Part shown: in pieces, positions 1,523 to 34,793 of the stretch
How positions within the stretch are numbered: the stretch's first letter is position 1
Layout of the letters: every line of letters begins with the position of its first letter
Source: a virus
Lineage: Duplodnaviria > Caudoviricetes
Virus record (IMG/VR): IMGVR_UViG_3300030372_003559
Span: 1 to 36,128 of that record
DNA length: 36,128 nucleotides
Reading direction: 5' to 3' (one strand)
Notes under the pieces: model-generated
What the model was told of the DNA's origin: nothing
Database searches by the model: none
Seen by the model: the letters and a program-made list of their open reading frames with translations, nothing else
Made by a program: the position numbers and the translations under genes

Positions 1523-1880
1523 GATTAGAGTATTTGGCAAGGTAAAGAATGGTAAGCTTAACTTAAATAATAAAGACGACTTTCAAAACGACTTATATAA
1601 GTTACATGGAGATGTCGTCTTAACTGTAAAAGAACTGCCAAAGAAAAAAACTAGCAAACAAAATAACTACTATAGAGGCGTAATAGTAAGGCTGTTAGCA
1701 CAACATCTAGGTTATTCTGACAATAAGATGCACGAGGTATTAAAGTTTAAGTTTGATGTGCAGTCTACTAGTAAATTATCACAAGATGAGTTTCAAGAGT
1801 ATCTTGATAGAATTATTAGATGGTCGGCTCAGTTTTTAGACTTTCCTTTACCTGATCCTACCAGACTTCAAGAATTTTAA
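1515..1880 (+). CDS. NinB/Orf-like recombination-associated protein
   Basis: KQNNYYRGVIV...GYS...MHEVLK...STSKLSQDEFQEYLDRI pattern; start codon (TTG) uncertain. Confidence 0.6.
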   Translation: MIEIRVFGKVKNGKLNLNNKDDFQNDLYKLHGDVVLTVKELPKKKTSKQNNYYRGVIVRLLAQHLGYSDNKMHEVLKFKFDVQSTSKLSQDEFQEYLDRIIRWSAQFLDFPLPDPTRLQEF

Positions 1881-2970
1881 GACTAACATTGTAAGTATTG
1901 TGAGCTACCTGCTTAAACGATATTGAGTCTTGATCCAATACACATATTGCAAAACCATCAGGAGTGAAGTCAGTTTTGTCTGGTTGAAATATAAACCTTA
2001 AACTACCACCTAAAGTTTTCTGCATAAATTGAGTAAAGAAACTTGTGTCTTGTGTAAAGACAAAATCAAGACCATCCTCTGTTGATCCACTATCAAATTG
2101 ATTGTAAGTATGAGGAAGTATATTTAACTCTCCTAAAATATCATTGTCTAATGTTTCAATATCAGCCATTAAATCTGACGATGCTATGTAAGAAAATTTT
2201 AAATCCCATCTTCTCCTACCTGCTCTTCTTTTTTGTATTTTTCTTGGTGTATCTAAATAAGTACCCCATGCCTCAGCATCTCCCCAAGTAGGTGGTTGAG
2301 TATAGTTGTAGTTTGTTAAAAGCGCACCACCTTTAGTAAACTGCTTAGTTGATCCACCATATTCTCTTGTAAGAGTTAAGTCTAAGTCAGGTGAGTGAGG
2401 CATATCATAATAATATCCTGCAGTTAATGCACCCAATTTTAATTGATTGGTTGGATCAAATCTAAAATTAAAAAAAGTAGATATTGGTATTGCACTAATC
2501 TCATCATCGGATGACTTTAAGTCTACAAATGAAAAACCATTTGCATTAACAGTATTGGCATTCATATTTATTTTAAATTTATTTTCCATGTTTTGCAAGG
2601 CAGAATAATTAGCTTCATTACTCTCTGTATATCCTAAAGCAATAGTTCCACCTTGTATTGATCCTGTATCTACTTCTTTTAAATTGTGATTAAATATTCC
2701 ATAATAGTCAAAAGCATAGTCAGTCGCCTTAAAATTAGTTGCAGTTCCAATATTTAATTCTTTAAAAGCTACCAAGTCTGTTAAATATTCTTCTTTAATT
2801 AAATTAGTTTTTGTAGGATTTAAGTAAAATAAGTTAGTTATTTGATCTAAATTTTCATTACTTCCAGTCGTTACAAATATATCTCCATCTGACAATATAC
2901 CTGTCGTTAAAGCATATTGAAAATAATCTACATAAAATCTTGGCGTACCTACATTTTGATATTTACCCAT
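1858..2970 (-). CDS. Putative tail-tip/distal tail structural protein
   Basis: 370 aa last gene of the late operon; GRRRWDLKFSY and FIFQPD...YNVSLKILEVW resemble distal-tail-type beta strands; positional call. Confidence 0.5.
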   Translation of the reverse strand: MGKYQNVGTPRFYVDYFQYALTTGILSDGDIFVTTGSNENLDQITNLFYLNPTKTNLIKEEYLTDLVAFKELNIGTATNFKATDYAFDYYGIFNHNLKEVDTGSIQGGTIALGYTESNEANYSALQNMENKFKINMNANTVNANGFSFVDLKSSDDEISAIPISTFFNFRFDPTNQLKLGALTAGYYYDMPHSPDLDLTLTREYGGSTKQFTKGGALLTNYNYTQPPTWGDAEAWGTYLDTPRKIQKRRAGRRRWDLKFSYIASSDLMADIETLDNDILGELNILPHTYNQFDSGSTEDGLDFVFTQDTSFFTQFMQKTLGGSLRFIFQPDKTDFTPDGFAICVLDQDSISFKQVAHNTYNVSLKILEVW

Positions 2971-3449
2971 TAATAACCTCCACTACTTCTAGTTGTCTGT
3001 CTAGACACATTTCTTGCTACACTTTCTCTCTTAACTGATTTTGCACCTTTTACTAACTTAGGTATATTATTTTTTTGTCTTAATACTTTTTTACCAAATC
3101 TATTTCCGCCTATATAGCTTTCCCATTCTGAACCTGAATCATATGTGCCTAAAGTCATAGACCAAAAACCTAAATTATTATTTACAGGAATTACATTAAT
3201 TTTAACTCCTTCACTAGTCGAAGCAATACATTGTGTTATTCTTAAAGAGCCATTATAAGTAAATAATATTTCAGGCAGAACTAATAATTCTAAACTATAT
3301 ATTAACATCTTTCCATCTGCTAATATTACATTGAAGTTGTCAGGAAGTTTGCTTACTACATTTATTTTACCCATAAAGTGTATTTGAAGACCAACAATTT
3401 GAGTATTTTCTTCTAAAACTACCTCACCATTTCCATATAACAAATTCAT
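2970..3449 (-). CDS. Putative cohesin-like beta-sandwich protein with basic C-terminal tail
   Basis: N-terminal ~90 aa of alternating beta-strand pattern (IVGLQIHFMG, MLIYSL, ILFTYNGSLRITQCIAS); starts 2 nt after the dockerin-bearing gene. Confidence 0.4.
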   Translation of the reverse strand: MNLLYGNGEVVLEENTQIVGLQIHFMGKINVVSKLPDNFNVILADGKMLIYSLELLVLPEILFTYNGSLRITQCIASTSEGVKINVIPVNNNLGFWSMTLGTYDSGSEWESYIGGNRFGKKVLRQKNNIPKLVKGAKSVKRESVARNVSRQTTRSSGGY

Positions 3450-3451
3450 AT

Positions 3452-6400
3452 TTATCCTAATATTATATTAACTAAAGTTACCACATCTAATACATCAATA
3501 TTTCCGTCTTGATTAATATCTGCTTGAAAAAACTCTTCATCTGTAGGTTGCTTTACTCCTAAAGCAAAACTAACTATATTTACTATATCTACAACATCTA
3601 TATTGCCATCGCCATTTACATCACCTGTTGGCAATACAACATTAGATTCCTCTTGTTGTGTTTCTGGCTCTTCAACCGTTCCTAAACTATTAATATCTAG
3701 GTTGTGTAGTTGTATTAGTTTTATATCTACTTTTTCTAAATTCTTATTAGTTTCATATACCATAAAGTATGGATATATTTCTTGTCCATTTCTATCTATT
3801 GATGTTTGTGTGTAAGTTTCACCAAATATTTTTGTTCCTTGTATTTCTTTGTCTAAAGCGACGACATCACCAACTTCTAACTTAATATACTTAATAGGTA
3901 AAGTAAGGCTAATTAAATTCTTTTGATTCATATTCCAAGTAAGTAACCAATTTTGCAACTGTTCTGCTGTATATCTATCTCTGATGTAGTCGCTTTCAAA
4001 GTTTAAAGTAGAGTCAGAGTCGTCAGTTGCTAAACCATAATACTGATATATACTAGTATTTACATAGTCTGTTGCCAAAATTTCATCTGTAGAAAATAAA
4101 TGATTGCCTTGAGCATAGTCAATATTAAATAAAACCTTTACTTTTGTTTTTACATCTTCTAATTTTGTTCTATCATATTTATAGTTAATAATATCTGATT
4201 CTTCTATTATTAAGTCTACATCATCGTCTGAATAAGTATCTTTGACTACATTCCAACCAAAAGTACCATCAGCTCGAAATCTTGGAAAAGACTTGGTTGA
4301 TCTTGAAAAATCTTCTATTAATTTTTTGGAACTTATTAGTTTGCTCTGCGTAAAAGCAAAAGTCCAGTCAGGATGTAATTCTTTTATTGCATTAAATTCA
4401 TCGTCATTAAACTCACCATCATACTTGCATTCTTCCTCTAATATATGCTTTACTATATCAGCAGGATTTTCTATTGGTGATATAAATATATTTTCCTTGT
4501 CAGAATTAATAGATATTTCATATTCATCTACAATTTCTCCATTTAAATTACCTAATTGTATCGTGAATGTTTCTTCAAAGACTTCATCTTTAGTTAATCC
4601 TTGAAAGTTAAAATCTATATAGTATACATCGTTTGAAATACTTAAACTAAATCCCCAACTTTTAATATTTACCTCTTTTTCAACATCTCCTAATGAATTA
4701 TATTGCACAGCTTTTAAAGGAACTATATTAAAAGAGTAAGGCATTTCTGATGTTAAAAGAGGTGAAGCATCATTCATAGCATTTTCAATTTCATCTAATA
4801 TTTCTTCTGCACTATCAGTAGTATTGATTATTGTATTTAATAAATTTTGTACAGGACTAGCAAATTGTCCTAAATTAAATGTATATAGTATAGAAGAAGT
4901 TGAGTAAAAATTAAACTCTGACTTTCTACCCCAAACACTTGCATAAAAGTTTTTATTTAATAAATTATCAATAGTTCCAAAAGCATATAAACGAGATTCG
5001 TAAATTCTAATTTTAATTGGTATTTCAATACCAATAAAATTCGTAATACTACCTAATTCCCTAATTTTAGGTAATCCTAAACAATATGAATTTGATTCAG
5101 CAGGAACTAAATGAGGATTTATACAACTAATAGGATTATTTTCTATGTCATCACTATCATAACTATTATATTCAGATTCACTTGTAGCAAATGTATGAAA
5201 ATAAGTATTATCACCTGTCGGCAAAACTTGTTCAATACTGCCTACTGGAGGTGCTTGTATAAAATTAGTATCAATTTCTGGTTCTAACAATGAACCAAAT
5301 TTATGTAAAAGTCTGCAAAAATCAGCACCTATAAACGATCTTATAAGAGGTTCAGGAAAAGCAGGATCAACTTTTAACAAAGCACTTCCAAATGACTGTG
5401 GTGCATTTGTTGATAATTGAAAAACTGAAATAACTGGCAAAGTTATTTTATCTAAACCTTGTTCATCAAAAACACTTCCAAATTGTCCAGATGTAGTTTC
5501 TAAATTTTCTATTTTAGCTATTATTCTTGTCCAAGATGAATTGTCGTTTATTTCAATCTTAACATCAGATGGTAAGGAATCAAAATTAAATTTTAAAAAA
5601 GCAGTTGATGATAGTAGGTGAAAGTCAAGATTTGCAAAATCTTCAAATTTACTTATAAATGTTCCTTCAATTTGTACACAAGTATTAGGATTTCCATCAT
5701 TAATTCTATCAAAATTCAAATTAAAGTCAGGAATAAGTTCTCCATCTTGAACAGTTCCACTTGTAAATTCAAAATTACCATCCGCGCCAATATTTTGTAT
5801 TTTTCTTTCAATTTTATTTTCTTTGCGATGAACTAAAACTCTACCTCTATTTGCTGCAGTATCATTTTTGGCTAATTCTTCTATAGTAATTTCACCATCT
5901 TCATTAGGTTCTGGTTGATCGTTAAATAAATTAACAAAACAAAAACCATTATTCGTGGCTAAAGTTGTAAAATTTATATGTCCTGCGTTTAATCCATTAT
6001 CAAAATCAATTACAGTTCGTGGATATATTCCTACATAAGTATCGTCTGATTCTACATATAAAGACGTTGATCCAATTATATTTCTTCCTACTTGTTCGTT
6101 TTCCGAAATAATTTTAGATAATTCTTTTCTATCAGCAAATACATCTCTTACAAACTCATAATTATCTAACTCTCCATCTTCATCTAAGTCATATTCACCT
6201 GTAGTTCCAAATGATGTTACACAAGGCGATCTATCAACCTTACCTATAACCATTGGAAAAGGTTTGTTTTTAAATTTAGATGTAAAATCTATTTCGCTAG
6301 TTATGCTTTCTGGTATATCTTTATGTACTTTTTGCTCTGAGGCATCTTCTACATTTAAAGTGAGAGTGGTGTCAGTTTGAGATATTCTTCTTACTGTACC

Positions 6401-6751
6401 TCTATAAACCAACATAGCTCGTGTAAGGTCGTTAATGTTTTGTGTTTTAAAAAAAATTTGCACATCACCATTTATTAAATCTACATAACTATCACTTAAA
6501 CGTCTACCTAGATACTTAGAATTAGAAAGTGTAACAGTTACGGATGATGTTTTATATTTACGAGTTTCAACGTCTACCGACTCTTTTATTGAAGATACAT
6601 TTAACAGTAGTGGATCAAAACTTAATTCTTGTAAGTTAAAATTGTATGTAGAAAAATAATTTATTTTATTTTCGCTAGTAATAACTACTAAAGGTATTAT
6701 ATTGTAAGTATTACTACCTGTAGCTAGGTTAAATTTTTCGTTATTTATCAT
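3452..6751 (-). CDS. Large tail-tip/baseplate hub protein with C-terminal type I dockerin domain
   Basis: 1099 aa directly after tape measure; ends GDVNGDGNIDVVDIVNIV...ADINQDGNIDVLDVVTLVNIILG (two Ca-binding loop-helix repeats, nt 3452-3625) after an acidic linker EEPETQQEES. Confidence 0.85.
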   Translation of the reverse strand: MINNEKFNLATGSNTYNIIPLVVITSENKINYFSTYNFNLQELSFDPLLLNVSSIKESVDVETRKYKTSSVTVTLSNSKYLGRRLSDSYVDLINGDVQIFFKTQNINDLTRAMLVYRGTVRRISQTDTTLTLNVEDASEQKVHKDIPESITSEIDFTSKFKNKPFPMVIGKVDRSPCVTSFGTTGEYDLDEDGELDNYEFVRDVFADRKELSKIISENEQVGRNIIGSTSLYVESDDTYVGIYPRTVIDFDNGLNAGHINFTTLATNNGFCFVNLFNDQPEPNEDGEITIEELAKNDTAANRGRVLVHRKENKIERKIQNIGADGNFEFTSGTVQDGELIPDFNLNFDRINDGNPNTCVQIEGTFISKFEDFANLDFHLLSSTAFLKFNFDSLPSDVKIEINDNSSWTRIIAKIENLETTSGQFGSVFDEQGLDKITLPVISVFQLSTNAPQSFGSALLKVDPAFPEPLIRSFIGADFCRLLHKFGSLLEPEIDTNFIQAPPVGSIEQVLPTGDNTYFHTFATSESEYNSYDSDDIENNPISCINPHLVPAESNSYCLGLPKIRELGSITNFIGIEIPIKIRIYESRLYAFGTIDNLLNKNFYASVWGRKSEFNFYSTSSILYTFNLGQFASPVQNLLNTIINTTDSAEEILDEIENAMNDASPLLTSEMPYSFNIVPLKAVQYNSLGDVEKEVNIKSWGFSLSISNDVYYIDFNFQGLTKDEVFEETFTIQLGNLNGEIVDEYEISINSDKENIFISPIENPADIVKHILEEECKYDGEFNDDEFNAIKELHPDWTFAFTQSKLISSKKLIEDFSRSTKSFPRFRADGTFGWNVVKDTYSDDDVDLIIEESDIINYKYDRTKLEDVKTKVKVLFNIDYAQGNHLFSTDEILATDYVNTSIYQYYGLATDDSDSTLNFESDYIRDRYTAEQLQNWLLTWNMNQKNLISLTLPIKYIKLEVGDVVALDKEIQGTKIFGETYTQTSIDRNGQEIYPYFMVYETNKNLEKVDIKLIQLHNLDINSLGTVEEPETQQEESNVVLPTGDVNGDGNIDVVDIVNIVSFALGVKQPTDEEFFQADINQDGNIDVLDVVTLVNIILG

Positions 6752-8952
6752 GACATTCCAAAGTTAGAGCCTTTACGGACAGCTTCTTTTATTCTCTCTG
6801 CAAGTTCTCCTTCTACAAAATCCTGCGACATCACGTTGCCTGATACATTAACAGTAACACCTGCCGAGCCAGTTTGATTTATCCTATTCATAGTTTCTAT
6901 GCCAACCGCATCTACTGCATTCCTACTCATAACAAACTCACCTTGCTCTGCTTCAATTATAGTTCCACCTTGAGAATGTCTTCGACCACCTATTATTCCA
7001 CCATACTCAAATTTTCCTATACTTTTTTCTATTTGTATTACATTAGCTAGACCTAGAGCATAAGATGTTGCGGCTTGAATGTAACTCATTGGTGGAACTC
7101 CTGTAGCTAATGCTCTGTTTGCTGCGGCATAAGCATCTATACCTGCCTGTACTTGCATTAACCTGGCAGTTGCTTTTGCTGAACCACTAGAGGCTTGATT
7201 TAACTTTGCCAAAGCTCCTACAGATGCTGATACAGTTTTTAACTTCGCTTGATGAGCTTGGTTATCTACTTCTTTTGTTTTGTTTAATTGTTCTTCTAAC
7301 ATTTTTAATACAGCAACTCTTTTTTCATCACTATCTATTAGATCGGCATTTGTATTTACAAATTCTATCATACCTTCTATATCGCTAATACGACCTTCTC
7401 TAGTCTTTAAAAATAATTGATTAAGTTGCTCATTAACTGATATATGATTTTCAATAGTGCTATCAGAATCGCCTAGAATAGATATAAACTTATCTATTTC
7501 TTCAATAGATAATTTACTTGCATTAATTTGTTTAAATATTGCAGAACCATAACCGTCTACACCATCTCTTGCTTCTTTGTAAGAATTAACTAAGTCTGTA
7601 TAATTTTTGATTTGTTTATCAGTTTCGTCTGCATTTTCGCCTCCAAACTGTATTGTTTTATCTAATTTATTCTGATATATTTCTATCATTTCATTAGCAT
7701 CTTTAATTGCTTTAGTAGCCTTTTCATATTCTTCTGTATCTTTAGCTCGAACTATGGATGCGTTTTGAGAACCTTTTTCAACATTTAATTGAGATGTTGT
7801 TAATTTCTTTAAACTTTCTATATATGTTGCAGTTTTACCTGATATGTTATCAGTAACATCATTAGCATCTTCAAAAGCATCTACTAATTTTAAAACTCCT
7901 GTTGCCAATGTTGTTACCGCTACAGTTGTTGCTATGTAAGGATTTTTCATTAAAGTAATGCCAAAAGTTTTAGTTAAGAAAGTTGCAACTTTAATTTTAT
8001 TATTATATAAAATTACAGCAGGTATCAAAGATACTGTAAAAGCAGATGCGAAAATTCTAACATTTTGTGGTGTAATAGTTTCATTAAAACTACTCATCAA
8101 GTCTAATGTAGGCTCTAAAAAAATATTAGCAAAATCACCTAAAGCCATAGCTGCATTTTGACTTGTAGCTGCAAATCTATCAAAAGTTTCGGTTGTAGAT
8201 GCTTGTTCATCGCCTAACAACTCTACTTTCTTTCTAGCGGCATCCATTACTGCATTTTGAAATGCTTGTTTCTTTTCATTGTCTGTTAAAGCAGAAACTG
8301 ATTTATTTAAAGACATAGCATAGTCTTTTTGAGCGTCATCAACTTTTACAATAATACCAATATTATCAAGCATCAACCTTGACTGTCTACCAACACCAGT
8401 AATTAAAGACTCAACAGAACTTGCTGTATCTCTACCAAGAGCCTTACCAAGTCTTTGTGCCATATCAAACATTTCAGCCATTTCATCTGTATTTTTACTA
8501 ACACCAAGTATCATGGCGTTGTTTGCTTGTTGCAATAACCTGAAGTCTGATACAGTACCGTTAGTTGCTTGTCGTAACTTATTCAAGGATTCTGATGACT
8601 TTTCTGTAGGATCAATCAAAGAATTAAAACTTTGCCTCATCAAATTGACTGCGGCAGCCTGTCTACCAAAGTCAATTACCTGTCTTATACCTAAAGCCAT
8701 AGCAAAGTTAAACAATAGCATTTTCGATCTTAAAGTAGCAAAACTTAAACCTAAATCTTTATTTGTATTAGTTAATCTTTTATTTCTAGTGTCTAATACT
8801 CCTGCATTCTTAGTGGTTTTACTAAGCTCATGTTTTAATTGTCTATTTTCACCTGTGAGCCTTTTAGTAGCGGCATCCAACTTGTTAATAGAATTAATTA
8901 ACGATTTGTCGCCTATTGGCTTAAACTTAATTGTTATGCTTTGTTCTGGCAT
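6748..8952 (-). CDS. Tail tape measure protein
   Basis: 734 aa Ala/Lys-rich helical protein after the chaperones; GVGRQSRLMLDNIGI and C-terminal FEYGG..GG..HSQGG..IEAEQGEFVM motifs. Confidence 0.9.
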   Translation of the reverse strand: MPEQSITIKFKPIGDKSLINSINKLDAATKRLTGENRQLKHELSKTTKNAGVLDTRNKRLTNTNKDLGLSFATLRSKMLLFNFAMALGIRQVIDFGRQAAAVNLMRQSFNSLIDPTEKSSESLNKLRQATNGTVSDFRLLQQANNAMILGVSKNTDEMAEMFDMAQRLGKALGRDTASSVESLITGVGRQSRLMLDNIGIIVKVDDAQKDYAMSLNKSVSALTDNEKKQAFQNAVMDAARKKVELLGDEQASTTETFDRFAATSQNAAMALGDFANIFLEPTLDLMSSFNETITPQNVRIFASAFTVSLIPAVILYNNKIKVATFLTKTFGITLMKNPYIATTVAVTTLATGVLKLVDAFEDANDVTDNISGKTATYIESLKKLTTSQLNVEKGSQNASIVRAKDTEEYEKATKAIKDANEMIEIYQNKLDKTIQFGGENADETDKQIKNYTDLVNSYKEARDGVDGYGSAIFKQINASKLSIEEIDKFISILGDSDSTIENHISVNEQLNQLFLKTREGRISDIEGMIEFVNTNADLIDSDEKRVAVLKMLEEQLNKTKEVDNQAHQAKLKTVSASVGALAKLNQASSGSAKATARLMQVQAGIDAYAAANRALATGVPPMSYIQAATSYALGLANVIQIEKSIGKFEYGGIIGGRRHSQGGTIIEAEQGEFVMSRNAVDAVGIETMNRINQTGSAGVTVNVSGNVMSQDFVEGELAERIKEAVRKGSNFGMS

Positions 8953-11260: not shown

Positions 11261-12213
11261 TATAATCTAGTCATCCTTGCTGATCTCATACTAGAAGCAT
11301 TATCTACTTCTTCAAAATATCCTGACAACTCTATTTCCCATTTATCTCCTAGTGTTGCAGTATCTGCGGTGTCGCCACCAAAGCGTATTTCTAAACCTCC
11401 AGATAAAGACTGATATTGTCCATTTATCACCTCATCAGCAAAGTCTGCAGGTAAGCCATTATTCATTCTTTCTGCGCCTAAATTTTCACTATCTTTGCGC
11501 CATACAGAGTATTTAGCAGTACCTAATGCACCACCTGTAGTAATTTTCACTCCTACTCTATCATAAACGCCAAAATATCTACCTCTAGTATCAACTATCT
11601 TTAAACCACCACTTACAGAAACTTCTCTTACTATTCCTTTAGAGCTGTCTGCGGTTTTCATCCAAGACAACACATTGTCACCACTATTTAATTTATCTAT
11701 CTCAGCCTGTGCTTCCTCCATCATATTTGATGCCACTTCAGATGTAGGATCATGAGAACGTATAAGAAAAACTGTGGCAAGTAATGCTGTTGTTCGTACA
11801 ATTATATAGTCATAGTTACCATCTTTGTCTTTAAATTGTTCTCTAGGCAAAGTTTTATCTAATTTACTTTCTAAATATCTTGATGCGTTTTCTCTATATC
11901 TTTGTTTTAAAGTCGTCCAATCTTCACCTGCCTCTATAAGCATATCATTAGGATTCTTTGTAGCGTGAAAAACTTGCACAGAATCTGTAGTAGAAGAATA
12001 ATTATACTCATATGTGGCATTAGGAGAGTCTGTTACAGATGTTCCTTTAATACCATCAAAAAACAAATGAGTTATTAATCCAGTATTATTTGCCTGGTAT
12101 TGATTAGTTGTATCTGTATTTTCAAATCCATATATAGGTGTCTTATTATCAAAGTCATCAATATGTGGATATACGTCTTTCAATTCTCTATCTGTACAAT
12201 ATGCTACTGCCAT
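11260..12213 (-). CDS. Head-tail adaptor/neck protein with extra domains
   Basis: N-terminal AYCTDRELK, ASRYLESKL and helical C-part typical of gp6/gp15-like adaptors; position. Confidence 0.6.
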   Translation of the reverse strand: MAVAYCTDRELKDVYPHIDDFDNKTPIYGFENTDTTNQYQANNTGLITHLFFDGIKGTSVTDSPNATYEYNYSSTTDSVQVFHATKNPNDMLIEAGEDWTTLKQRYRENASRYLESKLDKTLPREQFKDKDGNYDYIIVRTTALLATVFLIRSHDPTSEVASNMMEEAQAEIDKLNSGDNVLSWMKTADSSKGIVREVSVSGGLKIVDTRGRYFGVYDRVGVKITTGGALGTAKYSVWRKDSENLGAERMNNGLPADFADEVINGQYQSLSGGLEIRFGGDTADTATLGDKWEIELSGYFEEVDNASSMRSARMTRL

Positions 12214-12458
12214 TATTTGCCTCGCATTCTTCTTCTAGTAGACTTAGAGTATTTAGCTCTTTGCTTACCTTTTTTACTCGCTGCTCTTTTCTTTCTATTT
12301 TCATATGCTTTCTGTGAAGCTGTCATAGACTTTCTAATAGATGCAGGTAAATATCTGCCTCTTTTTCTTCGAGGCTTTTTCTTATCACCTTTACTAATGT
12401 AGTCCCATTTTTGAGAACTCCATTTCTTTAATGACTTTTGTGGTTTTCTAAGTGCCAT
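12213..12458 (-). CDS. Small highly basic protein
   Basis: 81 aa K/R-rich, QKSLKKWSSQKW...GRYLP; stop/start overlaps on both sides. Confidence 0.8.
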   Translation of the reverse strand: MALRKPQKSLKKWSSQKWDYISKGDKKKPRRKRGRYLPASIRKSMTASQKAYENRKKRAASKKGKQRAKYSKSTRRRMRGK

Positions 12459-12652: not shown

Positions 12653-12910
12653 TTACCAAGCCTTACACGACCAATACCTTGCAGTAGTTCTGTCTTTTGC
12701 TGTTGCACATCTATGCCTAGCTCTAAAAGACTTTCTTCTAGCAGGACTTGACTTTTTAATTCTCATATTAGGATCACCAAACGTAATTCTTTTTACTCGA
12801 CCTTTGTCCTTAACAAATACTTGCGACTTTTTACGACCAAAACCTGGTTGTCCTCTTCGTATTCTAGAAGGTTTATTTAAACGAACTGTTCTGCCTTTAT
12901 ATTTAGCCAT
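12653..12910 (-). CDS. Small highly basic protein of a family common in aquatic phages
   Basis: VKRITFGDPNMRIKKSSPARRKSFRARHRC...TARYWSCKAW. Confidence 0.8.
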   Translation of the reverse strand: MAKYKGRTVRLNKPSRIRRGQPGFGRKKSQVFVKDKGRVKRITFGDPNMRIKKSSPARRKSFRARHRCATAKDRTTARYWSCKAW

Positions 12911-17958: not shown

Positions 17959-20900
17959 TTACGGTGTATCTGTTTCTATTGCATTATTTGGCATATTTAT
18001 CATTACACCTGCGTTACCATTGACTTTTTCTAAACTTATATTACTTAATGTAAAATTTTGACCATCAGTATTACTTCTAACTTGTATATAAACACTTGCA
18101 CTTTCTACTTTAAAATATATAACATTATCTGTACCTGCGACTAAATTAGTTGTAGTTCCACCTCCGTGATTTATCCTAAATTGAAAACTTGGTAAACTTG
18201 ACGTTGTAGAAACACTATATACAAATTTATATATTGCATTTGATTCTAAATCTGATGACATTCCTGAATTTATAGATGATTGCAAATTCAATCTTAAATC
18301 ACCTGTATCTGTACCATTTTTAGTTAATGTCATAGATGTTTGTGAAGAAGTATGACCTGTCCAATCTCCTGTATCACCTGCTACGGTACTCCAATTATTA
18401 CCGTTAAAATTACCATCATCATTTAAATGTGGAGTAATAGCTGTTGCCAATGTTGGATTAGTTTGATCTCCAATCAATCCATTACCTGCAATATTATTAT
18501 CATCTAAAATTCCATCGCCCATTCTCCACCAAGCCTGTAAATTAGATGCTGATGTGTATCCACCACCATTCTGACTTAAATCAAAATTAGCTTTACTACC
18601 GTGATATATTTGTGCAACTTGAGATGCTGATAATGCAGTATCCCAAATAGCAACTTCATCTATATTTCCATTCCATTCTTCTGTTCTGACCTTACCTATA
18701 TGGACCTCTATATTTGAAAAATCTGATATTGTTGATGCTATTGCTGTTCCACCTGTTGTTGATGCTATTTCCAAACCATCTACATAAAAAGTTAATCTAT
18801 CATCATTTGTGCTTTGACTACCATCAAAAACTAAAACAATATGATGCCAAGCCTTATCAGTTGGATAAGTAGAATCTGACATTACAAAACCATTATTAGA
18901 AGATGATTCAAAGTCAGAGTAAAGTCTATTGGAAGCTGTTAATTTTATAGATATTTGATCATTAGTATCATCAAATATTGAAAATAAACCTATATTTGTA
19001 CTAACAACATCGGCTTTTGCCCATAATGAAACAGAAAGTGCAGACAAACCATTTAAAAAACTCATTTTACCTGCATTTATAAAGTCATCACCTCCATCAA
19101 ACAGTACAGACTTTGTATTTGCTACTGTATATATCTGTGTAGGTGTGTCTGTTTCTATATCGGCTGTCGCATCAAAGTTAATCATATCGCCTGAATTACG
19201 ATTAGGTGCGTGATCTACTAAATCAAATGCACTCATATTAATAGTAATTCCTGCATTACCATTTACAGGTTCAAATTTTACATTTTCTAATTTAAAATTA
19301 TGTCCTTCGGTTGATGTTTGGAATTGAAAATGATGATTAGCAGATGAAGATGTGCAAAGTTCATATATTTCAAAATTACCTGCAGATAAATTATGAATAT
19401 TTGTAGCATAACCACCATACCAAACAAATCTACAATTTGAACTTGGTAGTGTAGATGTTGTAGATAATGTACCTGTAATTTTATACACACCTGCAGGAAT
19501 ATCAGCTGACAATCCTGAATTGCTTGTTTTAACATATAATTTTGCATCTGCCGTTCCATCTATATCACTATCCGTTGTTGCTTCAAAAGCAGTTGCAGTA
19601 TTTGTATTTATAGTCCATTCTGCCAATGTTGTTAATGTCCAATTACTTCCATCTCCATTTCCATCGTCAGACAAATTAGGCACTAATGCAGTTCCTAATG
19701 TTGCATCAGTATAATCTGCAATCAAACCAATTCCTGTTTGACTACTATTACTAAAAGCATCTATACCACCATTACCCATTCTATAATAGGCTTGTAAGTT
19801 ACCTGTCTTTTCTACACCACTACCTGCTGTATAACTTGCAGATAATGTTAAATTGTTTGGCTCAGCTGAATTGTAAATAGATGCTATTGTGTTTGCATCT
19901 AACTCTGCATTCCATATTGCTACATCAGTTATTTTAGTTCCTGTATTTACTTTATCTGTTACACTTGTATTATTAATACCTCTGCCAAAAAAAATAGGAG
20001 AATTTCCATTATCAATTCCATCTGCATCTATATTTGATGAAGCTGTTGCAACTAAAGAACCATTAACATATAATTTTGGTGGATTATTAGCTGAAAAAGT
20101 ACCTACTATATGATTCCAAGTGTTTGTAGATAAAGCTGTGCCTGACTTGGTAGTTGTATTAGAATCAAATGAACCTTTTGCACTTTGAACATTCCATTTA
20201 GGCTTTTCGTCACTTTCTATTGTTAATCTAAACTCTCTATTGCCTGTACCTGCATTATATTTATTTACTATAGATTGGACTGTTGTTCCTGATTTTACAA
20301 AAATCCAAGCAGAAACAGTTCCTGCTGTTGTCATAAGTTGTGCATCACCTACTTCTATAAAGTCATCAGTACCATCAAAATCTATACTTTTACCTGTAAA
20401 GAATGTTTTTCTCATATCAGGTATTACAAGGTTGTTAGCATTGTCATCTACTACTCTTGTAGATGCTTCGTCGCCCATTCTCCACCAACCTTTAAGATTA
20501 GCACTTGATGAATAATCACCTGTATCAGTAGATAAATCTAAAGTTGCTTTGTTAGTATTGTAGATTTGTGTTACTTCATTTTGAGTTAATATGTCGTGCC
20601 ATATAGCTACTTCATCTACATTTCCTAATATCTCATAAGAATTAGACGCATCATTACCTATATTTCCTGCCGAATCACTAAAAGAAGCAGTATATGATAA
20701 AGTACCTGAAGCTATTTCTTGACTATCTAAATACATTTTTTGTGAACCATCGGTAATAGTTAAAACTATATGATGCCAATTTCCATCATTTGCATTAACA
20801 GGAGAAGATGATCCAAAATATCCGTGAGAACTACCGTATACTATACCTGTAATATATCCTGCTACATCGCTTTGGTCTGATGCTTTTTGATTTATAGATA

Positions 20901-21138
20901 TTGCAACACTTGTAGATGTTGTTGATCCTGATCTTATTAATTGAAATAAATATATCCTATCAGAACTTGTAGTCTTAAACCAAGCTGATATAGATAAATT
21001 TGCATTACCTAAAGAACTTGATGCAGGTAATGTTAAAATATCATTAGTACCATCAAAATCTATTGATTTAGTATTGGTTACCTCTGCGAGGACATCTACA
21101 AATCCACCTTTAGATGTGCCTAATCCTAATCCTAACAT
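17959..21138 (-). CDS. Multi-LamG (concanavalin A-like) fibre protein, probable head spike fibre
   Basis: Three units each with KS(I/V)xFDG.(N/D)D, W.HIV, D(E)VAIW, L..(W/Y)(W/Y)RMG; N-terminal MLGLGLG. Confidence 0.85.
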   Translation of the reverse strand: MLGLGLGTSKGGFVDVLAEVTNTKSIDFDGTNDILTLPASSSLGNANLSISAWFKTTSSDRIYLFQLIRSGSTTSTSVAISINQKASDQSDVAGYITGIVYGSSHGYFGSSSPVNANDGNWHHIVLTITDGSQKMYLDSQEIASGTLSYTASFSDSAGNIGNDASNSYEILGNVDEVAIWHDILTQNEVTQIYNTNKATLDLSTDTGDYSSSANLKGWWRMGDEASTRVVDDNANNLVIPDMRKTFFTGKSIDFDGTDDFIEVGDAQLMTTAGTVSAWIFVKSGTTVQSIVNKYNAGTGNREFRLTIESDEKPKWNVQSAKGSFDSNTTTKSGTALSTNTWNHIVGTFSANNPPKLYVNGSLVATASSNIDADGIDNGNSPIFFGRGINNTSVTDKVNTGTKITDVAIWNAELDANTIASIYNSAEPNNLTLSASYTAGSGVEKTGNLQAYYRMGNGGIDAFSNSSQTGIGLIADYTDATLGTALVPNLSDDGNGDGSNWTLTTLAEWTINTNTATAFEATTDSDIDGTADAKLYVKTSNSGLSADIPAGVYKITGTLSTTSTLPSSNCRFVWYGGYATNIHNLSAGNFEIYELCTSSSANHHFQFQTSTEGHNFKLENVKFEPVNGNAGITINMSAFDLVDHAPNRNSGDMINFDATADIETDTPTQIYTVANTKSVLFDGGDDFINAGKMSFLNGLSALSVSLWAKADVVSTNIGLFSIFDDTNDQISIKLTASNRLYSDFESSSNNGFVMSDSTYPTDKAWHHIVLVFDGSQSTNDDRLTFYVDGLEIASTTGGTAIASTISDFSNIEVHIGKVRTEEWNGNIDEVAIWDTALSASQVAQIYHGSKANFDLSQNGGGYTSASNLQAWWRMGDGILDDNNIAGNGLIGDQTNPTLATAITPHLNDDGNFNGNNWSTVAGDTGDWTGHTSSQTSMTLTKNGTDTGDLRLNLQSSINSGMSSDLESNAIYKFVYSVSTTSSLPSFQFRINHGGGTTTNLVAGTDNVIYFKVESASVYIQVRSNTDGQNFTLSNISLEKVNGNAGVMINMPNNAIETDTP

Positions 21139-23415: not shown

Positions 23416-24720
23416 ATGGAAAATAAAGAATTTAAGGAAAATTGGTTTGATTTTATAGACTATGTTCCTCACAATGGACAAAAAAAGTTACACTTTCCAA
23501 ACAAAGATTGGAGATTTTGTGTGGCAGTCTGCGGCAGGAGATGGGGAAAGTCTGTAAGCGCATCTATAGAGGCTCAAATTATACTTGCGAAACCTAATAA
23601 AAGAGTTTGGTGCGTTGCGCCAACCTATGATGGTTCTGAAAAGATATTTAGAGAGATTTGGCATAAAATGGTTGTGGAAAAAGGTTTTGAAACAACTAGA
23701 GCTTCATATAAAGACCAATATATAGAATTTGAATGGGGTAGCGTAGTAGAAGGTAAAAGTGCCGACAAGCCTGATAGCTTAGTTGGTGAAGGTTTAGACT
23801 TACTTATAATAGATGAGGCTGCTAAAATAAAGAAAAAGACGTGGGAAATGTATTTAAGACCTACGCTATCTGATAGAAAAGGTAAAGCTCTTTTTATAAC
23901 AACGCCACAAGGATTTAATTGGATATATGATTTATACTTACTTGGACAAAAGGATGAGATGTGGCATTCATTTAACAGTCCTAGTTATGAAAATAATTAT
24001 GCTTATCCTGATGGTAGTCGCGATGCCGATTTACTGGAAGCTAAGCGAAATTTGGCAAAAGAAGTCTATGATCAAGAGTATGGAGCAAAGTTTACAAGTT
24101 TTGCAGGTAGAGTTTATCCGTTTGATCGTAATCTTGATATGGGTGATTTTAAATATGATCCTGGTTTGCCTACTTTTTGCAGTATAGACTTTGGATATAG
24201 GCAACCTGCTGTATTGTGGATGCAAACATATAGAGAAGCAGGTATGTGGCACGTCAAAATAATAGATGAAATTATACACGACAGAGATATTAAAACAGAT
24301 GAACTTGCTAAAAGAATTAAAGCAAAACATTACAAAGGTGTTGTTTACTTTGGCGATCCTGCAGGTGGACAAGCTCAAGGTCAAACAGGTTTAGGAGATA
24401 TAGAGATTTTTAGAAGGCATGGCATTATTGTAAGAACAATTAGAGATAAAGTTTCAAGGAAACTTGAGGCAGGTGTATCTCACGTTAGAGGTTTCATAGA
24501 AAATGCTGAAGGCATGAGATTTCTTCATGTAAATAAAAAATGTTTAGGTATAGCAGAGGACTTAGAAAACTATCGCTATCCTGAACCTAAAGAAGGCTTT
24601 CCACTTAAGCCTGATCCAGTCAAAGATGGTTATCACGATCATGGTTGTGATGCTTTAAGATATTTTTTCATTAATAGATTTCCAATTAAAAAAAGAGAAG
24701 TTAGGATACTACAAAGATGA
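23416..24720 (+). CDS. terL: Terminase large subunit
   Basis: Walker A CGRRWGKS, Walker B LIIDEAA, ITTPQG coupling motif, nuclease SIDFG and DHGCDALRY. Confidence 0.96.
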   Translation: MENKEFKENWFDFIDYVPHNGQKKLHFPNKDWRFCVAVCGRRWGKSVSASIEAQIILAKPNKRVWCVAPTYDGSEKIFREIWHKMVVEKGFETTRASYKDQYIEFEWGSVVEGKSADKPDSLVGEGLDLLIIDEAAKIKKKTWEMYLRPTLSDRKGKALFITTPQGFNWIYDLYLLGQKDEMWHSFNSPSYENNYAYPDGSRDADLLEAKRNLAKEVYDQEYGAKFTSFAGRVYPFDRNLDMGDFKYDPGLPTFCSIDFGYRQPAVLWMQTYREAGMWHVKIIDEIIHDRDIKTDELAKRIKAKHYKGVVYFGDPAGGQAQGQTGLGDIEIFRRHGIIVRTIRDKVSRKLEAGVSHVRGFIENAEGMRFLHVNKKCLGIAEDLENYRYPEPKEGFPLKPDPVKDGYHDHGCDALRYFFINRFPIKKREVRILQR

Positions 24721-25988
24721 TTGCACAAGACATAATACAAGACTCGTTAAAGAATGAAAAGTTAAGAATTGCAAACGCCAGGCGTGATGAAATAAGACGC
24801 ATGGTAGACTACTACACAGACTGTGAAACAGATAAATATATAATAGATCACTTTAACTCTCAAGCATTTAGAGAGATACCTCCTTACTCTGTGAATTTTA
24901 CAAGAAGATTTATTAATAAGATGTCGAGAATATATACCTTAGGAGCGGATAGGAATGTCAGCGATGAGTACCTCTCTTTAACACGCAAGAAGAACGCTAG
25001 AATGAAGCACATAGAACGAATGACGAGGCTTGTTGGTACAATAGCAAACAGGGTAATGGTGAAAGAAGATGCCAATGGTACTTTTTTTGACTATAGACCT
25101 ATATATTATTACAATGCGTTCTTTGATGACGATCCGTTTTTGCCTATGGCAATAACCTATCCGCTACTCCTCCCTGTAAACGACATATCTGATTCAGGAA
25201 AATTAGAATATGCCTATTGGGATGACACTCATTATGCTCAATATGATGAAGATGGAAACATAACAATGCAATACGAGCATGGTTTTGGTATGTTGCCATT
25301 TGTATTTACACACAGAGAAGATCAAATAGACTCACATTTTGTAGAAGGTGCTAATGATATTGTTAATGTAAACGAGCAAGTAAATATAACTATGACTGAA
25401 ATGCAACTTGGTTTAAGGTTTCAAATGTTCGGACAGCCAGTAACTACAGGCGCAGACATAGATGTAAACACTATTAGGACAGGATCAGATAGTATATTAG
25501 GCTTACCAGAAGGTTCTACATTTAATATAGTTGCTCCTGAAGGTGATATTAACGCAGTTATTGAAAATGTAAAGTTCCAAATAGAACTCGTTGCATCTAA
25601 CAACCATTTAATGATAAATTGGGCAGAGCAAGGTGGTGAAATGCCATCAGGTGTTAGTCTTATGATTAAAGACTTAGAAAGAACAGAGGATTACTATGAT
25701 GATCTTGAGTTGTTTAGAATGTATGAAGAGGAGTTTTTTATTGTTGAAAAGGCAGTTGGTCAAGCAAATAATATCAATCTTCCTAATAATTTTGGTGTTA
25801 ATTTCGTTGAACCTGAATATCCTCAGTCAATCCAAGATCAAATTGCTTGGAATACTTACAGACTAAGTAATAACCTAACAACTAGACCTAAATTGCTTAA
25901 CGAAATCAACACAGACCTATCTTTAGAAGAAGCCGAACAGATAGTTAATGCTAATGCAGAGGTCAATGCAGGTATAGAACAAAGATGA
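24717..25988 (+). CDS. Portal protein (SPP1 gp6-like)
   Basis: 423 aa with ATGA overlap to terL; HGFGMLPFVF and SGVSL motifs. Confidence 0.85.
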   Translation: MIAQDIIQDSLKNEKLRIANARRDEIRRMVDYYTDCETDKYIIDHFNSQAFREIPPYSVNFTRRFINKMSRIYTLGADRNVSDEYLSLTRKKNARMKHIERMTRLVGTIANRVMVKEDANGTFFDYRPIYYYNAFFDDDPFLPMAITYPLLLPVNDISDSGKLEYAYWDDTHYAQYDEDGNITMQYEHGFGMLPFVFTHREDQIDSHFVEGANDIVNVNEQVNITMTEMQLGLRFQMFGQPVTTGADIDVNTIRTGSDSILGLPEGSTFNIVAPEGDINAVIENVKFQIELVASNNHLMINWAEQGGEMPSGVSLMIKDLERTEDYYDDLELFRMYEEEFFIVEKAVGQANNINLPNNFGVNFVEPEYPQSIQDQIAWNTYRLSNNLTTRPKLLNEINTDLSLEEAEQIVNANAEVNAGIEQR

Positions 25989-26751: not shown

Positions 26752-26965
26752 GCTCTCTAAATTTAGCCTCAAAACAATTATCAGTAGAGTCAAACTCTTT
26801 AAGTACATAACCATTTACTTCGTCATACTCGAAGTCATCTAACTGCCAGGAACACATAAAACCTTCACTATCATATGTATCTTCTATTCTAGGATAGTAA
26901 CAATTTAAACACTCACTTACCGATATAGTACCAATAACAACCATTAACCATGTAGCAAATATCAT
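26735..26965 (-). CDS. Hypothetical protein with hydrophobic N-terminus
   Basis: 76 aa, overlaps terS stop; four Cys. Confidence 0.55.
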   Translation of the reverse strand: MIFATWLMVVIGTISVSECLNCYYPRIEDTYDSEGFMCSWQLDDFEYDEVNGYVLKEFDSTDNCFEAKFRELKQRP

Positions 26966-27606
26966 CTAATCTCCTTTTCTCTACGTTCCAATTCTGCATA
27001 CCATTCTTCTCTAGCTTGACCTGTGCGCCTACCTAAAGGCTCTAAACCTACTTTTTTAGCTCTTTGTTGCCTTTTATACGACTCTAAGCTCTTTTTTCTA
27101 TTCTTTGCGCGTTGTTCTGGTGATACTTCTTTCTTGTAACCGCGTTTTATGGCGTTATTTAGGCTTTCTCGCTCGTTTTTAGCCTTCACTCTAGGTTTAT
27201 CATTGCTTGTATCTCTCTCAGGCAATTCTGAAGTAATTTCATAGTCCATAACTTCGGCATCTTCAATATTACTCATATTTATAAACTTTTCGTATGGACT
27301 TTCATTCTTAATACTAATTCGTTTAACAAGTTTACCTGACATTTCTGCCCATAACCTCATAGCAGATACATTACCTAGCTTAGCTTCTCTAAACGCGGCA
27401 TCCATAACCTGCGTCATCTTAAAACCTGATGTACTCATATACTTAGTATACACAGCTTCATTAAAGCCTGCATCAGTCTTCCAGGTCTTAAGCGTAGTAA
27501 TTCCAATACCACAAGCATCTGCAACTGCCGCCAAAGACGCATTTGGTTCTTCAGCCAACATTTGCATAGCTCTATCTTTAACTTCTTTTTTTATTAATTT
27601 CGGCAT
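26962..27606 (-). CDS. terS: Putative terminase small subunit with N-terminal HTH
   Basis: HTH ASLAAVADACGIGITTLKTWK..AGF; REAKLGNVSAMRLW helix; ATG 27606 preferred over TTG 27633. Confidence 0.65.
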   Translation of the reverse strand: MPKLIKKEVKDRAMQMLAEEPNASLAAVADACGIGITTLKTWKTDAGFNEAVYTKYMSTSGFKMTQVMDAAFREAKLGNVSAMRLWAEMSGKLVKRISIKNESPYEKFINMSNIEDAEVMDYEITSELPERDTSNDKPRVKAKNERESLNNAIKRGYKKEVSPEQRAKNRKKSLESYKRQQRAKKVGLEPLGRRTGQAREEWYAELERREKEIR

Positions 27607-27641
27607 AGTCAAATATAGAATTTTTTTTGACAAAATTACAA
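27607..27641 (-). promoter_or_regulatory. Putative leaderless promoter of terS
   Basis: TTGTAA-18nt-TATATT-tgact-ATG, no SD. Confidence 0.45.
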
Positions 27642-33534: not shown

Positions 33535-33763
33535 TGACTATTTTCAGGACTTATATCCATCAAGGCACGACACTCATCGAAAGCATGAACGCCAACAAGA
33601 GCCTTCAGTCGATAAAAAGCTTAGATACTGTACAAAATGTAAAAAAGTATGGGAAATACCACCTATGTTCATGAATTTAAACAAGGAATTGATGTATTAC
33701 GATATTACATCATTAGGAAAAACAAAAAAAATATGCAAAAAATGCAAGGAAAACAATGAGTGA
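33410..33763 (+). CDS. Zn-binding hypothetical protein (start uncertain)
   Basis: YCTKCKKVWE...ICKKC; 5' part overlaps the initiator gene. Confidence 0.6.
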   Translation: MRKCRKKDDNFVNNNKNMKNDLHLQKKLEKLCPKFPNGWWVNDYFQDLYPSRHDTHRKHERQQEPSVDKKLRYCTKCKKVWEIPPMFMNLNKELMYYDITSLGKTKKICKKCKENNE

Positions 33764-34793
33764 ATTAATATTATGGAATAAAATGAAAAACGCAGTAGTA
33801 GAATGTCATTCTGTAGATGAGATAAAACAACTGCGAGATAAAGCTGAGGCTTATAGGTATGCCTTAAAACAAGCTAAAGAGTCGCCAGAAGTTATAAGAA
33901 AGGCAGAAGAAATTAAACTTCGTGCCGAAAGAAGAGCAGGAGAATTATTAAAAGAAACGCCTAAAGCAAAAGGGGGGAATCCTAACTCCTCACAGCCTGT
34001 TAGGGGTTGTGAAACACTTAGTGATATGGGTATTACTTATAATCAATCGTCAAAGTGGCAAAAAATAGCAAACATACCTGAAGAAAAGTTTGAAAATTAT
34101 TTAGAGGTTGAAAAAGAGCTATCTACTAGAGGAGCAATAAGAGTAGCAAGACAGATAGAAAGACAAGAAGAAATACATAAAAAGATTGAAGAAGGAAGAA
34201 ATAAATTAATAGATATAGATTTTAGATTAGGAGATTTTGAAGAGGTTTTATCTGATATGCCTGATAATAGCGTAGATTGCATTATAACTGATCCACCATA
34301 TCCAAAAGAATACATTAATTGTTGGTCTAAATTGGCTAAATTTGCTAAAAGAGTTTTAAAGCCTAATGGTTTTTGCATAGCATATTCAGGACAAATGCAC
34401 TTACCTGAAGTGATTAAAAGAATGAATGAACATTTAGATTATTATTGGACATTTGCATTATATCATGAAGGACAAACTCAGATTGTAAATGGAGTTAATC
34501 TTATATGTAGATGGAAGCCTGTTCTTGTTTATCAAAAAGATAAGAAAAAAATTAAAAATACCTTTCAAGATTACTTTATATCAGAAAGTAGAGAAAAAAA
34601 TAATCATGATTGGCAACAATCAAAATCAGGAGTTTCATACTTAATTGAAATGTTTACTAATCCTGGAGATTTAATTTGTGAACCATTCGCAGGAAGTGGC
34701 ACAACAATATTGGCGGCTATAAACAAAAATAGAAGCATAATAGCATCTGAAATCGATGAAGATACTTATAATATAGCTAAGGCAAATCTATGA
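33756..34793 (+). CDS. DNA N6-adenine/N4-cytosine methyltransferase (beta order) with N-terminal helical/HTH domain
   Basis: ITDPPY precedes EPFAGSGTT; N-domain RAERRAGELL...LSDMGITYNQSSKWQKIA. Confidence 0.92.
   Translation: MSELILWNKMKNAVVECHSVDEIKQLRDKAEAYRYALKQAKESPEVIRKAEEIKLRAERRAGELLKETPKAKGGNPNSSQPVRGCETLSDMGITYNQSSKWQKIANIPEEKFENYLEVEKELSTRGAIRVARQIERQEEIHKKIEEGRNKLIDIDFRLGDFEEVLSDMPDNSVDCIITDPPYPKEYINCWSKLAKFAKRVLKPNGFCIAYSGQMHLPEVIKRMNEHLDYYWTFALYHEGQTQIVNGVNLICRWKPVLVYQKDKKKIKNTFQDYFISESREKNNHDWQQSKSGVSYLIEMFTNPGDLICEPFAGSGTTILAAINKNRSIIASEIDEDTYNIAKANL

Follow-up and report, generated by a model that had tools for sequence, protein, structure and literature searches.

A dockerin on the probable tail-tip hub of a tailed phage and a predicted miniature cohesin encoded by the adjoining gene

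Does a tailed phage carry in its tail operon a cohesin-dockerin pair, a type of connector hitherto known from bacterial and archaeal surfaces? The question is raised by IMG/VR virus record IMGVR_UViG_3300030372_003559 (Duplodnaviria; Caudoviricetes), which was analysed complete as a window of 36,128 bases. A terminase large subunit, a major head protein, a lysozyme and a tape measure protein were found among its products in Pfam and PHROG scans and identify the window as a tailed phage; no match to a sheath protein was seen in these scans of the window proteins. On the minus strand the tape measure gene is followed, in this order, by genes for proteins of 1099, 159 and 370 amino acids (aa). 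The reading favoured here, which is regarded as moderately probable, is that a dockerin/mini-cohesin cassette of host type, divided between two genes, keeps an accessory protein (the 159 aa product) tethered to the tail hub (the 1099 aa product).

The 1099 aa protein (3452..6751, minus strand) is encoded by a large gene directly after the tape measure gene (6748..8952, minus strand; PHROG 3779, E 2.4e-16) and is probably a Tal-like tail-tip hub, as judged from this position and from a sub-threshold Pfam match to Phage-tail_3 (aa 918-971, 20 bits against a cut-off of 23). Among its homologues P0068 passes the Phage-tail_3 threshold at 27.4 bits, while one of 23 related hubs has a sub-threshold match and none of the 23 passes. 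An acidic linker that varies among relatives (aa 1021-1042; 3626..3691) joins the hub body to a C-terminal type I-like domain (aa 1043-1099; 3455..3625) which, by its sequence, is a genuine dockerin. The duplicated dockerin motif noticed in a preliminary description was borne out by the Dockerin_1 (PF00404) hidden Markov model, which matches residues 1043-1097 at 35.1 bits in the full protein and at 41.5 bits in the C-terminal 82 aa (cut-off 22.9), and the solved structures closest in sequence are the C. thermocellum dockerins 2ccl_B and 1ohz_B. The two 22-residue repeats (3557-3622 and 3455-3520) are identical at 13 of 22 positions, both carry Asp/Asn at loop positions 1, 3, 5, 9 and 12, and both have Val/Leu at positions 10-11, as do most bacterial relatives. 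According to the accessible part of PMC12484212, type I dockerins carry a pair of such Ca-binding motifs, and their binding surface is symmetric. The domain is under purifying selection (ratio of nonsynonymous to synonymous substitutions, dN/dS, 0.13-0.37 versus four relatives) and is the only dockerin in the whole record, placed on a gene of the structural operon. Its loop-helix/helix/loop-helix fold was read from a model of the homologue P0068, not of the window's own dockerin (helices 15-25, 33-39 and 49-59; Z 13.1, root mean square deviation (rmsd) 1.4 to 2ccl_B).

The open reading frame of the 159 aa protein (2970-3449, minus strand) lies 2 nucleotides (nt) from that of the hub (3452-6751, minus strand), as previously described. 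The motif AGGA at 3455..3458 (minus strand), within the last codons of the hub gene and 5 nt before the ATG, is its likely ribosome-binding site, from which we infer translational coupling of the 159 aa gene to the hub. A profile search (E up to 0.001) gave 201 representatives of this partner family at 50% identity, a few of them bacterial, and the best 150 of the 201 were examined. Residues G8, G27, F63, Y65 and G67 are kept in at least 90% of these 150 rows, and the core is under purifying selection (dN/dS 0.10-0.21 versus four relatives). With the 150 aligned rows, AlphaFold2 modelled aa 1-90 (3180..3449, minus strand) as an all-beta domain with a predicted local distance difference test score (pLDDT) of 86-93 per block. 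The model has 10 strand elements, of which the last two form one interrupted strand (cohesins are nine-stranded jelly-rolls), and the three segments quoted in the preliminary description are present on predicted strands. In a VIA-align comparison with 48,161 chains, ranks 1-13 were all cohesin chains (Z 8.1-9.5), the best being 6kgc_A with an rmsd of 2.6 over 95 residues. All 29 rows listed above rank 34 by Foldseek were likewise cohesin entries, counting 2o4e, which we take to be a cohesin. The N-terminal domain is therefore predicted to be cohesin-like by fold and to stand outside the Pfam Cohesin family: the earlier cohesin call holds for the predicted fold, whereas it found no counterpart in Pfam or profile matches, and at about 90 residues the domain is a miniature, compared with 135-158 residues in the single-cohesin chains among the top matches and with the usual cohesin size of about 140.

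According to the part of PMC5429695 that was available, cohesins have nine strands and bind the dockerin on the 8-3-6-5 sheet. In the partner family (150 rows, strands counted in sequence order) four consecutive positions of strand 6, on both faces, are hydrophobic in 91-99% of rows, and strand 3 bears a conserved G (68%) and Q/E (84%) on one face, a pattern that would fit an exposed hydrophobic patch. The remainder of the protein (aa 91-159; 2970..3179, minus strand) was modelled with low pLDDT and consists of a Trp-spaced segment followed by a basic low-complexity end; it is conserved, contains 13 K/R versus 4 D/E, and in a comparison of architectures occupies the place of a bacterial type IX secretion domain. 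The partner has no PHROG family, its 150 relatives giving six single-member matches only. An alignment-profile search of the PDB sequences with the partner gave nothing significant, tblastn of the partner and of its relative P0020 against 50,697 GenBank phage records gave no match, and none of nine viral structure matches carries a name. An Atlas cluster with 31% Pfam Cohesin members, placed among eukaryotes by one taxon record, matched the partner with a score of 0.84 and is noted only as a lead. In a distant subfamily (L108:5001-5636; P0013, P0020, P0028) the C terminus is extended by a segment that contains HxH and MTGxxH motifs and matches no Pfam family.

Gene neighbours were viewed for part of the partner family, and 49 related loci were tallied, with re-fetched loci and L049 excluded; the latter was rejected as a family member, since its contig is GC-rich and has no such gene, and the match was judged spurious. 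The 49 loci, some of them near-copies, hold 38 distinct partner cores in 28 clusters at 90% and 13 clusters at 60% identity, the lowest identity being 19%. In 47 of the 49 loci a dockerin match on a separate gene ends at most 68 nt from the partner core, and in none of these 47 split loci does a gene intervene between the two. Even at L112, where the dockerin sits on a gene of its own (187 aa) apart from the hub, it still stands directly before the partner. Nine further loci were reached via the 370 aa family; in these the 370 aa gene directly follows the hub, dockerin and partner are both absent (9/9), and the dockerin-less hubs are homologous in all seven cases tested. The co-occurrence of the two genes, one of the checks proposed beforehand, was thus observed. 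That the two genes are really one, interrupted by a sequencing error or a conserved frameshift, was ruled out, as the gaps between hub and partner (-14 to +9 nt at 13 junctions) vary across all frames. Because 47 of 49 loci are split, the gaps are variable and no insertion or deletion is listed at the junction in contigs from four runs, the stop and restart is not an assembly slip.

Several loci show variations on this arrangement. Many dockerins of L108-L121 have several cysteines in the helices and the spacer, where disulfides or metal binding are possible. At L111 (5651-7465) a second intact dockerin lies inside a protein of the 370 aa family (aa 230-284, Pfam 30.5 bits), so that two plugs stand against a single socket gene at this locus. 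At L045 (627-4972) two genes together encode the hub, and the product of the first ends Lys/Arg-rich with a closing GSY, much as partner tails close with GGY.

Nature also provides single-chain versions of the pair. Among the 150 relatives, the phage hubs P0068 and P0137 are extended beyond the dockerin by the partner with its tail, and in a third phage hub, L120, the hub, a dockerin half decayed in its second repeat and the partner form one chain; this decay, seen in one case, is as expected, since the tether would no longer be needed once the two are fused. Four other relatives (P0110, P0132, P0134, P0150) consist of a dockerin, a partner-type domain and a type IX secretion tail. P0110 was found in the partner profile search at E 1.9e-6, and its closest genome match (72%) is Candidatus (Ca.) Neomarinimicrobiota. 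In five such genomes all 11 matches had the order dockerin, domain and secretion tail. Among 101 genomes of the phylum seven matched, and seven of nine new places showed the same three parts; two weak ones were unconfirmed by profile. All 18 confirmed Marinimicrobia copies carry dockerin, mini-cohesin domain and type IX secretion tail in one chain, with 11-17 residues between dockerin and domain (21 sequences). In a 93-column tree one branch separates 28 phage cores from 22 bacterial ones (Shimodaira-Hasegawa-like approximate likelihood ratio 92, unrooted), which allows a single transfer, the direction of which the tree does not give. Transfer from bacteria to phage is suggested by the complete secretion cassette of the bacterial form and by other phages without the pair.

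P0068 naturally has dockerin and domain in one chain, and this stretch was modelled by AlphaFold with a mean pLDDT of 89, a low-confidence linker and a predicted template modelling score (pTM) of 0.83; the value calculated for two domains without fixed placement is 0.50-0.59. Its halves match dockerins (2ccl_B, Z 13.1) and cohesins (2vo8_A, Z 10.0) in the PDB, and the two are predicted to pack as one unit. The proposal of a dockerin-cohesin pair in the preliminary description has thus fared well in the hidden Markov model, fold and co-occurrence checks, and the natural fusions came as evidence beyond these.

Several observations weigh against the tethering reading. The identity of the hub rests on gene position and a Pfam match under threshold. 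The partner has no Pfam match and Pfam Cohesin (PF00963) is matched by none of its 150 relatives; an hhalign comparison with 30 Marinimicrobia Pfam cohesins scored 13.0, versus up to 12.9 with shuffled columns, and aligned strand 3 alone. The best Foldseek E value of the partner model is just 1.3e-3, and the first non-cohesin in VIA-align, an accessory domain of GH20, follows at Z 8.1, a cohesin margin of 1.4. The fusion model is that of a homologue, comes without control or interface, and may echo AlphaFold's familiarity with solved cohesin-dockerin complexes. At L140 a partner is present, and the upstream frame, of which 147 nt are available, does not close with a dockerin. On the tree of the 370 aa family (34 rows, near-duplicates excluded; L140 labelled as having the pair although no dockerin was seen there) presence or absence of the pair is one change; because the pair-less phages form one clade, it counts as one contrast, and the treatment of the nine loci as independent cases was rejected. 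The search for a prophage or host link through the 370 aa gene found no convincing relative in 401 genomes of the phylum, one of the 401 giving a marginal match (E 9.4e-4).

Some of these points feed the alternative that there is no binding between the two domains, the dockerin being a calcium-stabilised end cap and its neighbour a generic beta-sandwich (carbohydrate-binding or Ig-like) acquired together with it. A sequence-profile link to cohesins is indeed absent, non-cohesin sandwiches reach Z 7.7-8.1, and a single acquisition would account for the adjacency; this alternative is nevertheless held to be unlikely, as adjacency is kept at core identities down to 19% with no gene inserted in the 47 split loci, the L112 dockerin stays beside the partner though separated from the hub, cohesins rank above all other folds in two models, and the fusion reached the pTM given above. 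Alternatively, the hub dockerin might be a plug that recognises host-surface cohesins as its receptor, and the phage mini-cohesin a temporary cap or decoy that is shed or exchanged at adsorption. That would suit the Pfam cohesins found over cut-off in 53 of 101 sampled genomes of the Marinimicrobia phylum, the likeness of the phage dockerin to bacterial ones (at most 52% identity, with the same hydrophobic residues at positions 10-11), its exposed-looking position behind an acidic linker, and the second dockerin of L111, for which no second partner gene was seen. The three hubs fused to their partner, one of them with a decayed dockerin, argue against a removable cap, and because some relatives fuse both domains, an attached accessory protein is the better fit; moreover, the conserved extra tail of the partner would be superfluous for a mere cap, every one of the 18 confirmed bacterial mini-cohesins has its own dockerin in the same chain, and the 401 genomes searched gave no convincing host link. 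This reading is considered unlikely.

In a third arrangement the C-terminal tail would anchor the 159 aa protein to the virion, and the cohesin face of this protein would catch dockerin-tagged proteins of the host surface. The Marinimicrobia loci L070, L072, L074 and L079 do include proteins whose terminal dockerin is free and not followed by a cohesin-like domain. This arrangement would, however, leave unexplained why the upstream gene ends in a dockerin at 47 of 49 loci, and also the packed fusion model, and it is considered very unlikely.

The favoured tethering of the 159 aa protein to the hub could have arisen when an ancestor of the phage clade took a dockerin and mini-cohesin cassette from the end of a Marinimicrobia-like, type IX-secreted protein. 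The captured cassette would have been placed on the hub C terminus, losing the secretion domain and gaining the Trp-spaced basic tail instead, and most lineages would then have split it into two coupled genes. Synthesis of the 159 aa protein would be coupled to that of the hub via the likely ribosome-binding site in the last hub codons, and its mini-cohesin is predicted to bind the hub dockerin, probably in a calcium-dependent way, so that the accessory protein would be clipped onto the tail tip. The dockerin would act as a tether keeping the Trp-spaced basic tail on the virion, where that tail may cement the tip or stick to the host surface. Siphophage tail hubs are trimers, and a trimeric hub would give three partner sites. 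Dockerins require calcium and cytoplasmic calcium is low, which bears on the time at which the joint would close. A farther-reaching proposal, to which little probability is given, is a calcium-switched plug and socket derived from a host surface system and carried by a widespread marine phage clade, which would close only in calcium-rich seawater after lysis and pass the dockerin from the mini-cohesin to Marinimicrobia cohesins for adsorption.

Downstream of the pair, or directly after the hub where the pair is absent, stands the gene of the 370 aa conserved viral protein (1858..2970, minus strand). This protein has no Pfam or PHROG match; all 30 of its Atlas matches are without a common Pfam family, and the three shown are viral. 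Genes of its family occur in two or three tandem copies at L022, L108, L110, L111, L112, L116 and L118. The terminase large subunit and the next gene, of 423 aa, lie at 23416-25988 on the plus strand, opposite to the other structural genes at 1858-23288 (minus strand); the 423 aa product is a portal by position and has no profile match. A terminase-small-like gene is found at 26962-27633 (minus strand). Close behind the major head gene, a 1059 aa protein (17959-21138, minus strand) with three Laminin G-like lectin domains is a likely adhesin. Two small Lys/Arg-rich genes (12213-12458 and 12653-12910, minus strand) match PHROGs 14910 and 7595, families without an assigned function, and two genes (315-1277 and 33756-34793, plus strand) look DNA methyltransferase-like from motifs judged by eye. 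More than half of the record's sampled words are present in six marine metagenome runs from two studies, two possible source runs being excluded; no RNA runs are among the listed holders of these words.

In the portions of the literature that could be consulted, a cohesin-dockerin system is inferred in Cloacimonadota (PMC8542988), dockerins are reported on a putative archaeal virus contig with no cohesin in the text seen (PMC13452462), Marinimicrobia podo- and myoviruses are described with no dockerin in the accessible part (PMC4611503), and the text available of two further papers holds a template name only (PMC5967307) or unrelated contexts only (PMC9012536). The literature search, with supplements and most subscription journals outside its coverage, turned up neither a paper that places a cohesin-dockerin pair in a virion nor one on Marinimicrobia dockerins. 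Peer et al. reportedly surveyed non-cellulosomal modules in 2009, and their survey may bear on novelty. Should binding prove true, a clade of ocean phages (the 201 representatives mentioned above, with their few bacterial members) would use a cohesin-dockerin pair in tail assembly, a 90-residue cohesin overlooked by routine annotation would be defined, and Marinimicrobia or their kin would be indicated as hosts or donors. The compact hydrophobic pair might also be useful as a protein connector.

The locus probably presents a form of a known connector in a new setting, a phage tail operon. Hub proteins of siphophages that resemble Tal or gpJ bear C-terminal extensions. The present hub is like them in being a large gene product encoded after the tape measure, in its weak Phage-tail_3 match and in its variable C-terminal add-on, but here the add-on belongs to a class of protein-docking modules and has a partner gene of its own, and it is not a fibre, an enzyme or a carbohydrate-binding domain. 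With clostridial type I cohesin-dockerin complexes (1ohz, 2ccl, 6kgc, 5nrk; for those of R. flavefaciens the available part of PMC5429695) it shares the duplicated Ca-binding loop-helix dockerin, and the predicted jelly-roll of the partner superposes on type I cohesins over about 95 residues, whereas the partner has about 90 rather than about 140 residues, lacks a Pfam match and is encoded in a phage tail operon. A cellulosome combines a secreted multi-cohesin scaffold with dockerin-tagged enzymes; unlike clostridial cellulosomes, the phage has one dockerin and one cohesin-like domain, without scaffoldin, enzyme or secretion domain. In Ca. Stygibacter the idea is related, but as far as the accessible text of PMC8542988 goes the cohesins are tandem modules on a scaffoldin, and neither the cassette nor a phage appears there. 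Non-cellulosomal cohesins, namely the glycoside-hydrolase modules of C. perfringens (2jh2, 2vo8, 2w1n) and that of A. fulgidus (2xdh), gave the best Foldseek and near-best VIA-align matches and, like the phage pair, are connectors outside cellulose breakdown, but they belong to cellular proteins and not to adjacent genes of a phage structural operon. The Marinimicrobia cassette belongs to the same domain family by profile search and has the same order, with the dockerin first; there it is a single chain with a secretion tail, while the phages usually have two genes and a Trp-spaced basic tail.

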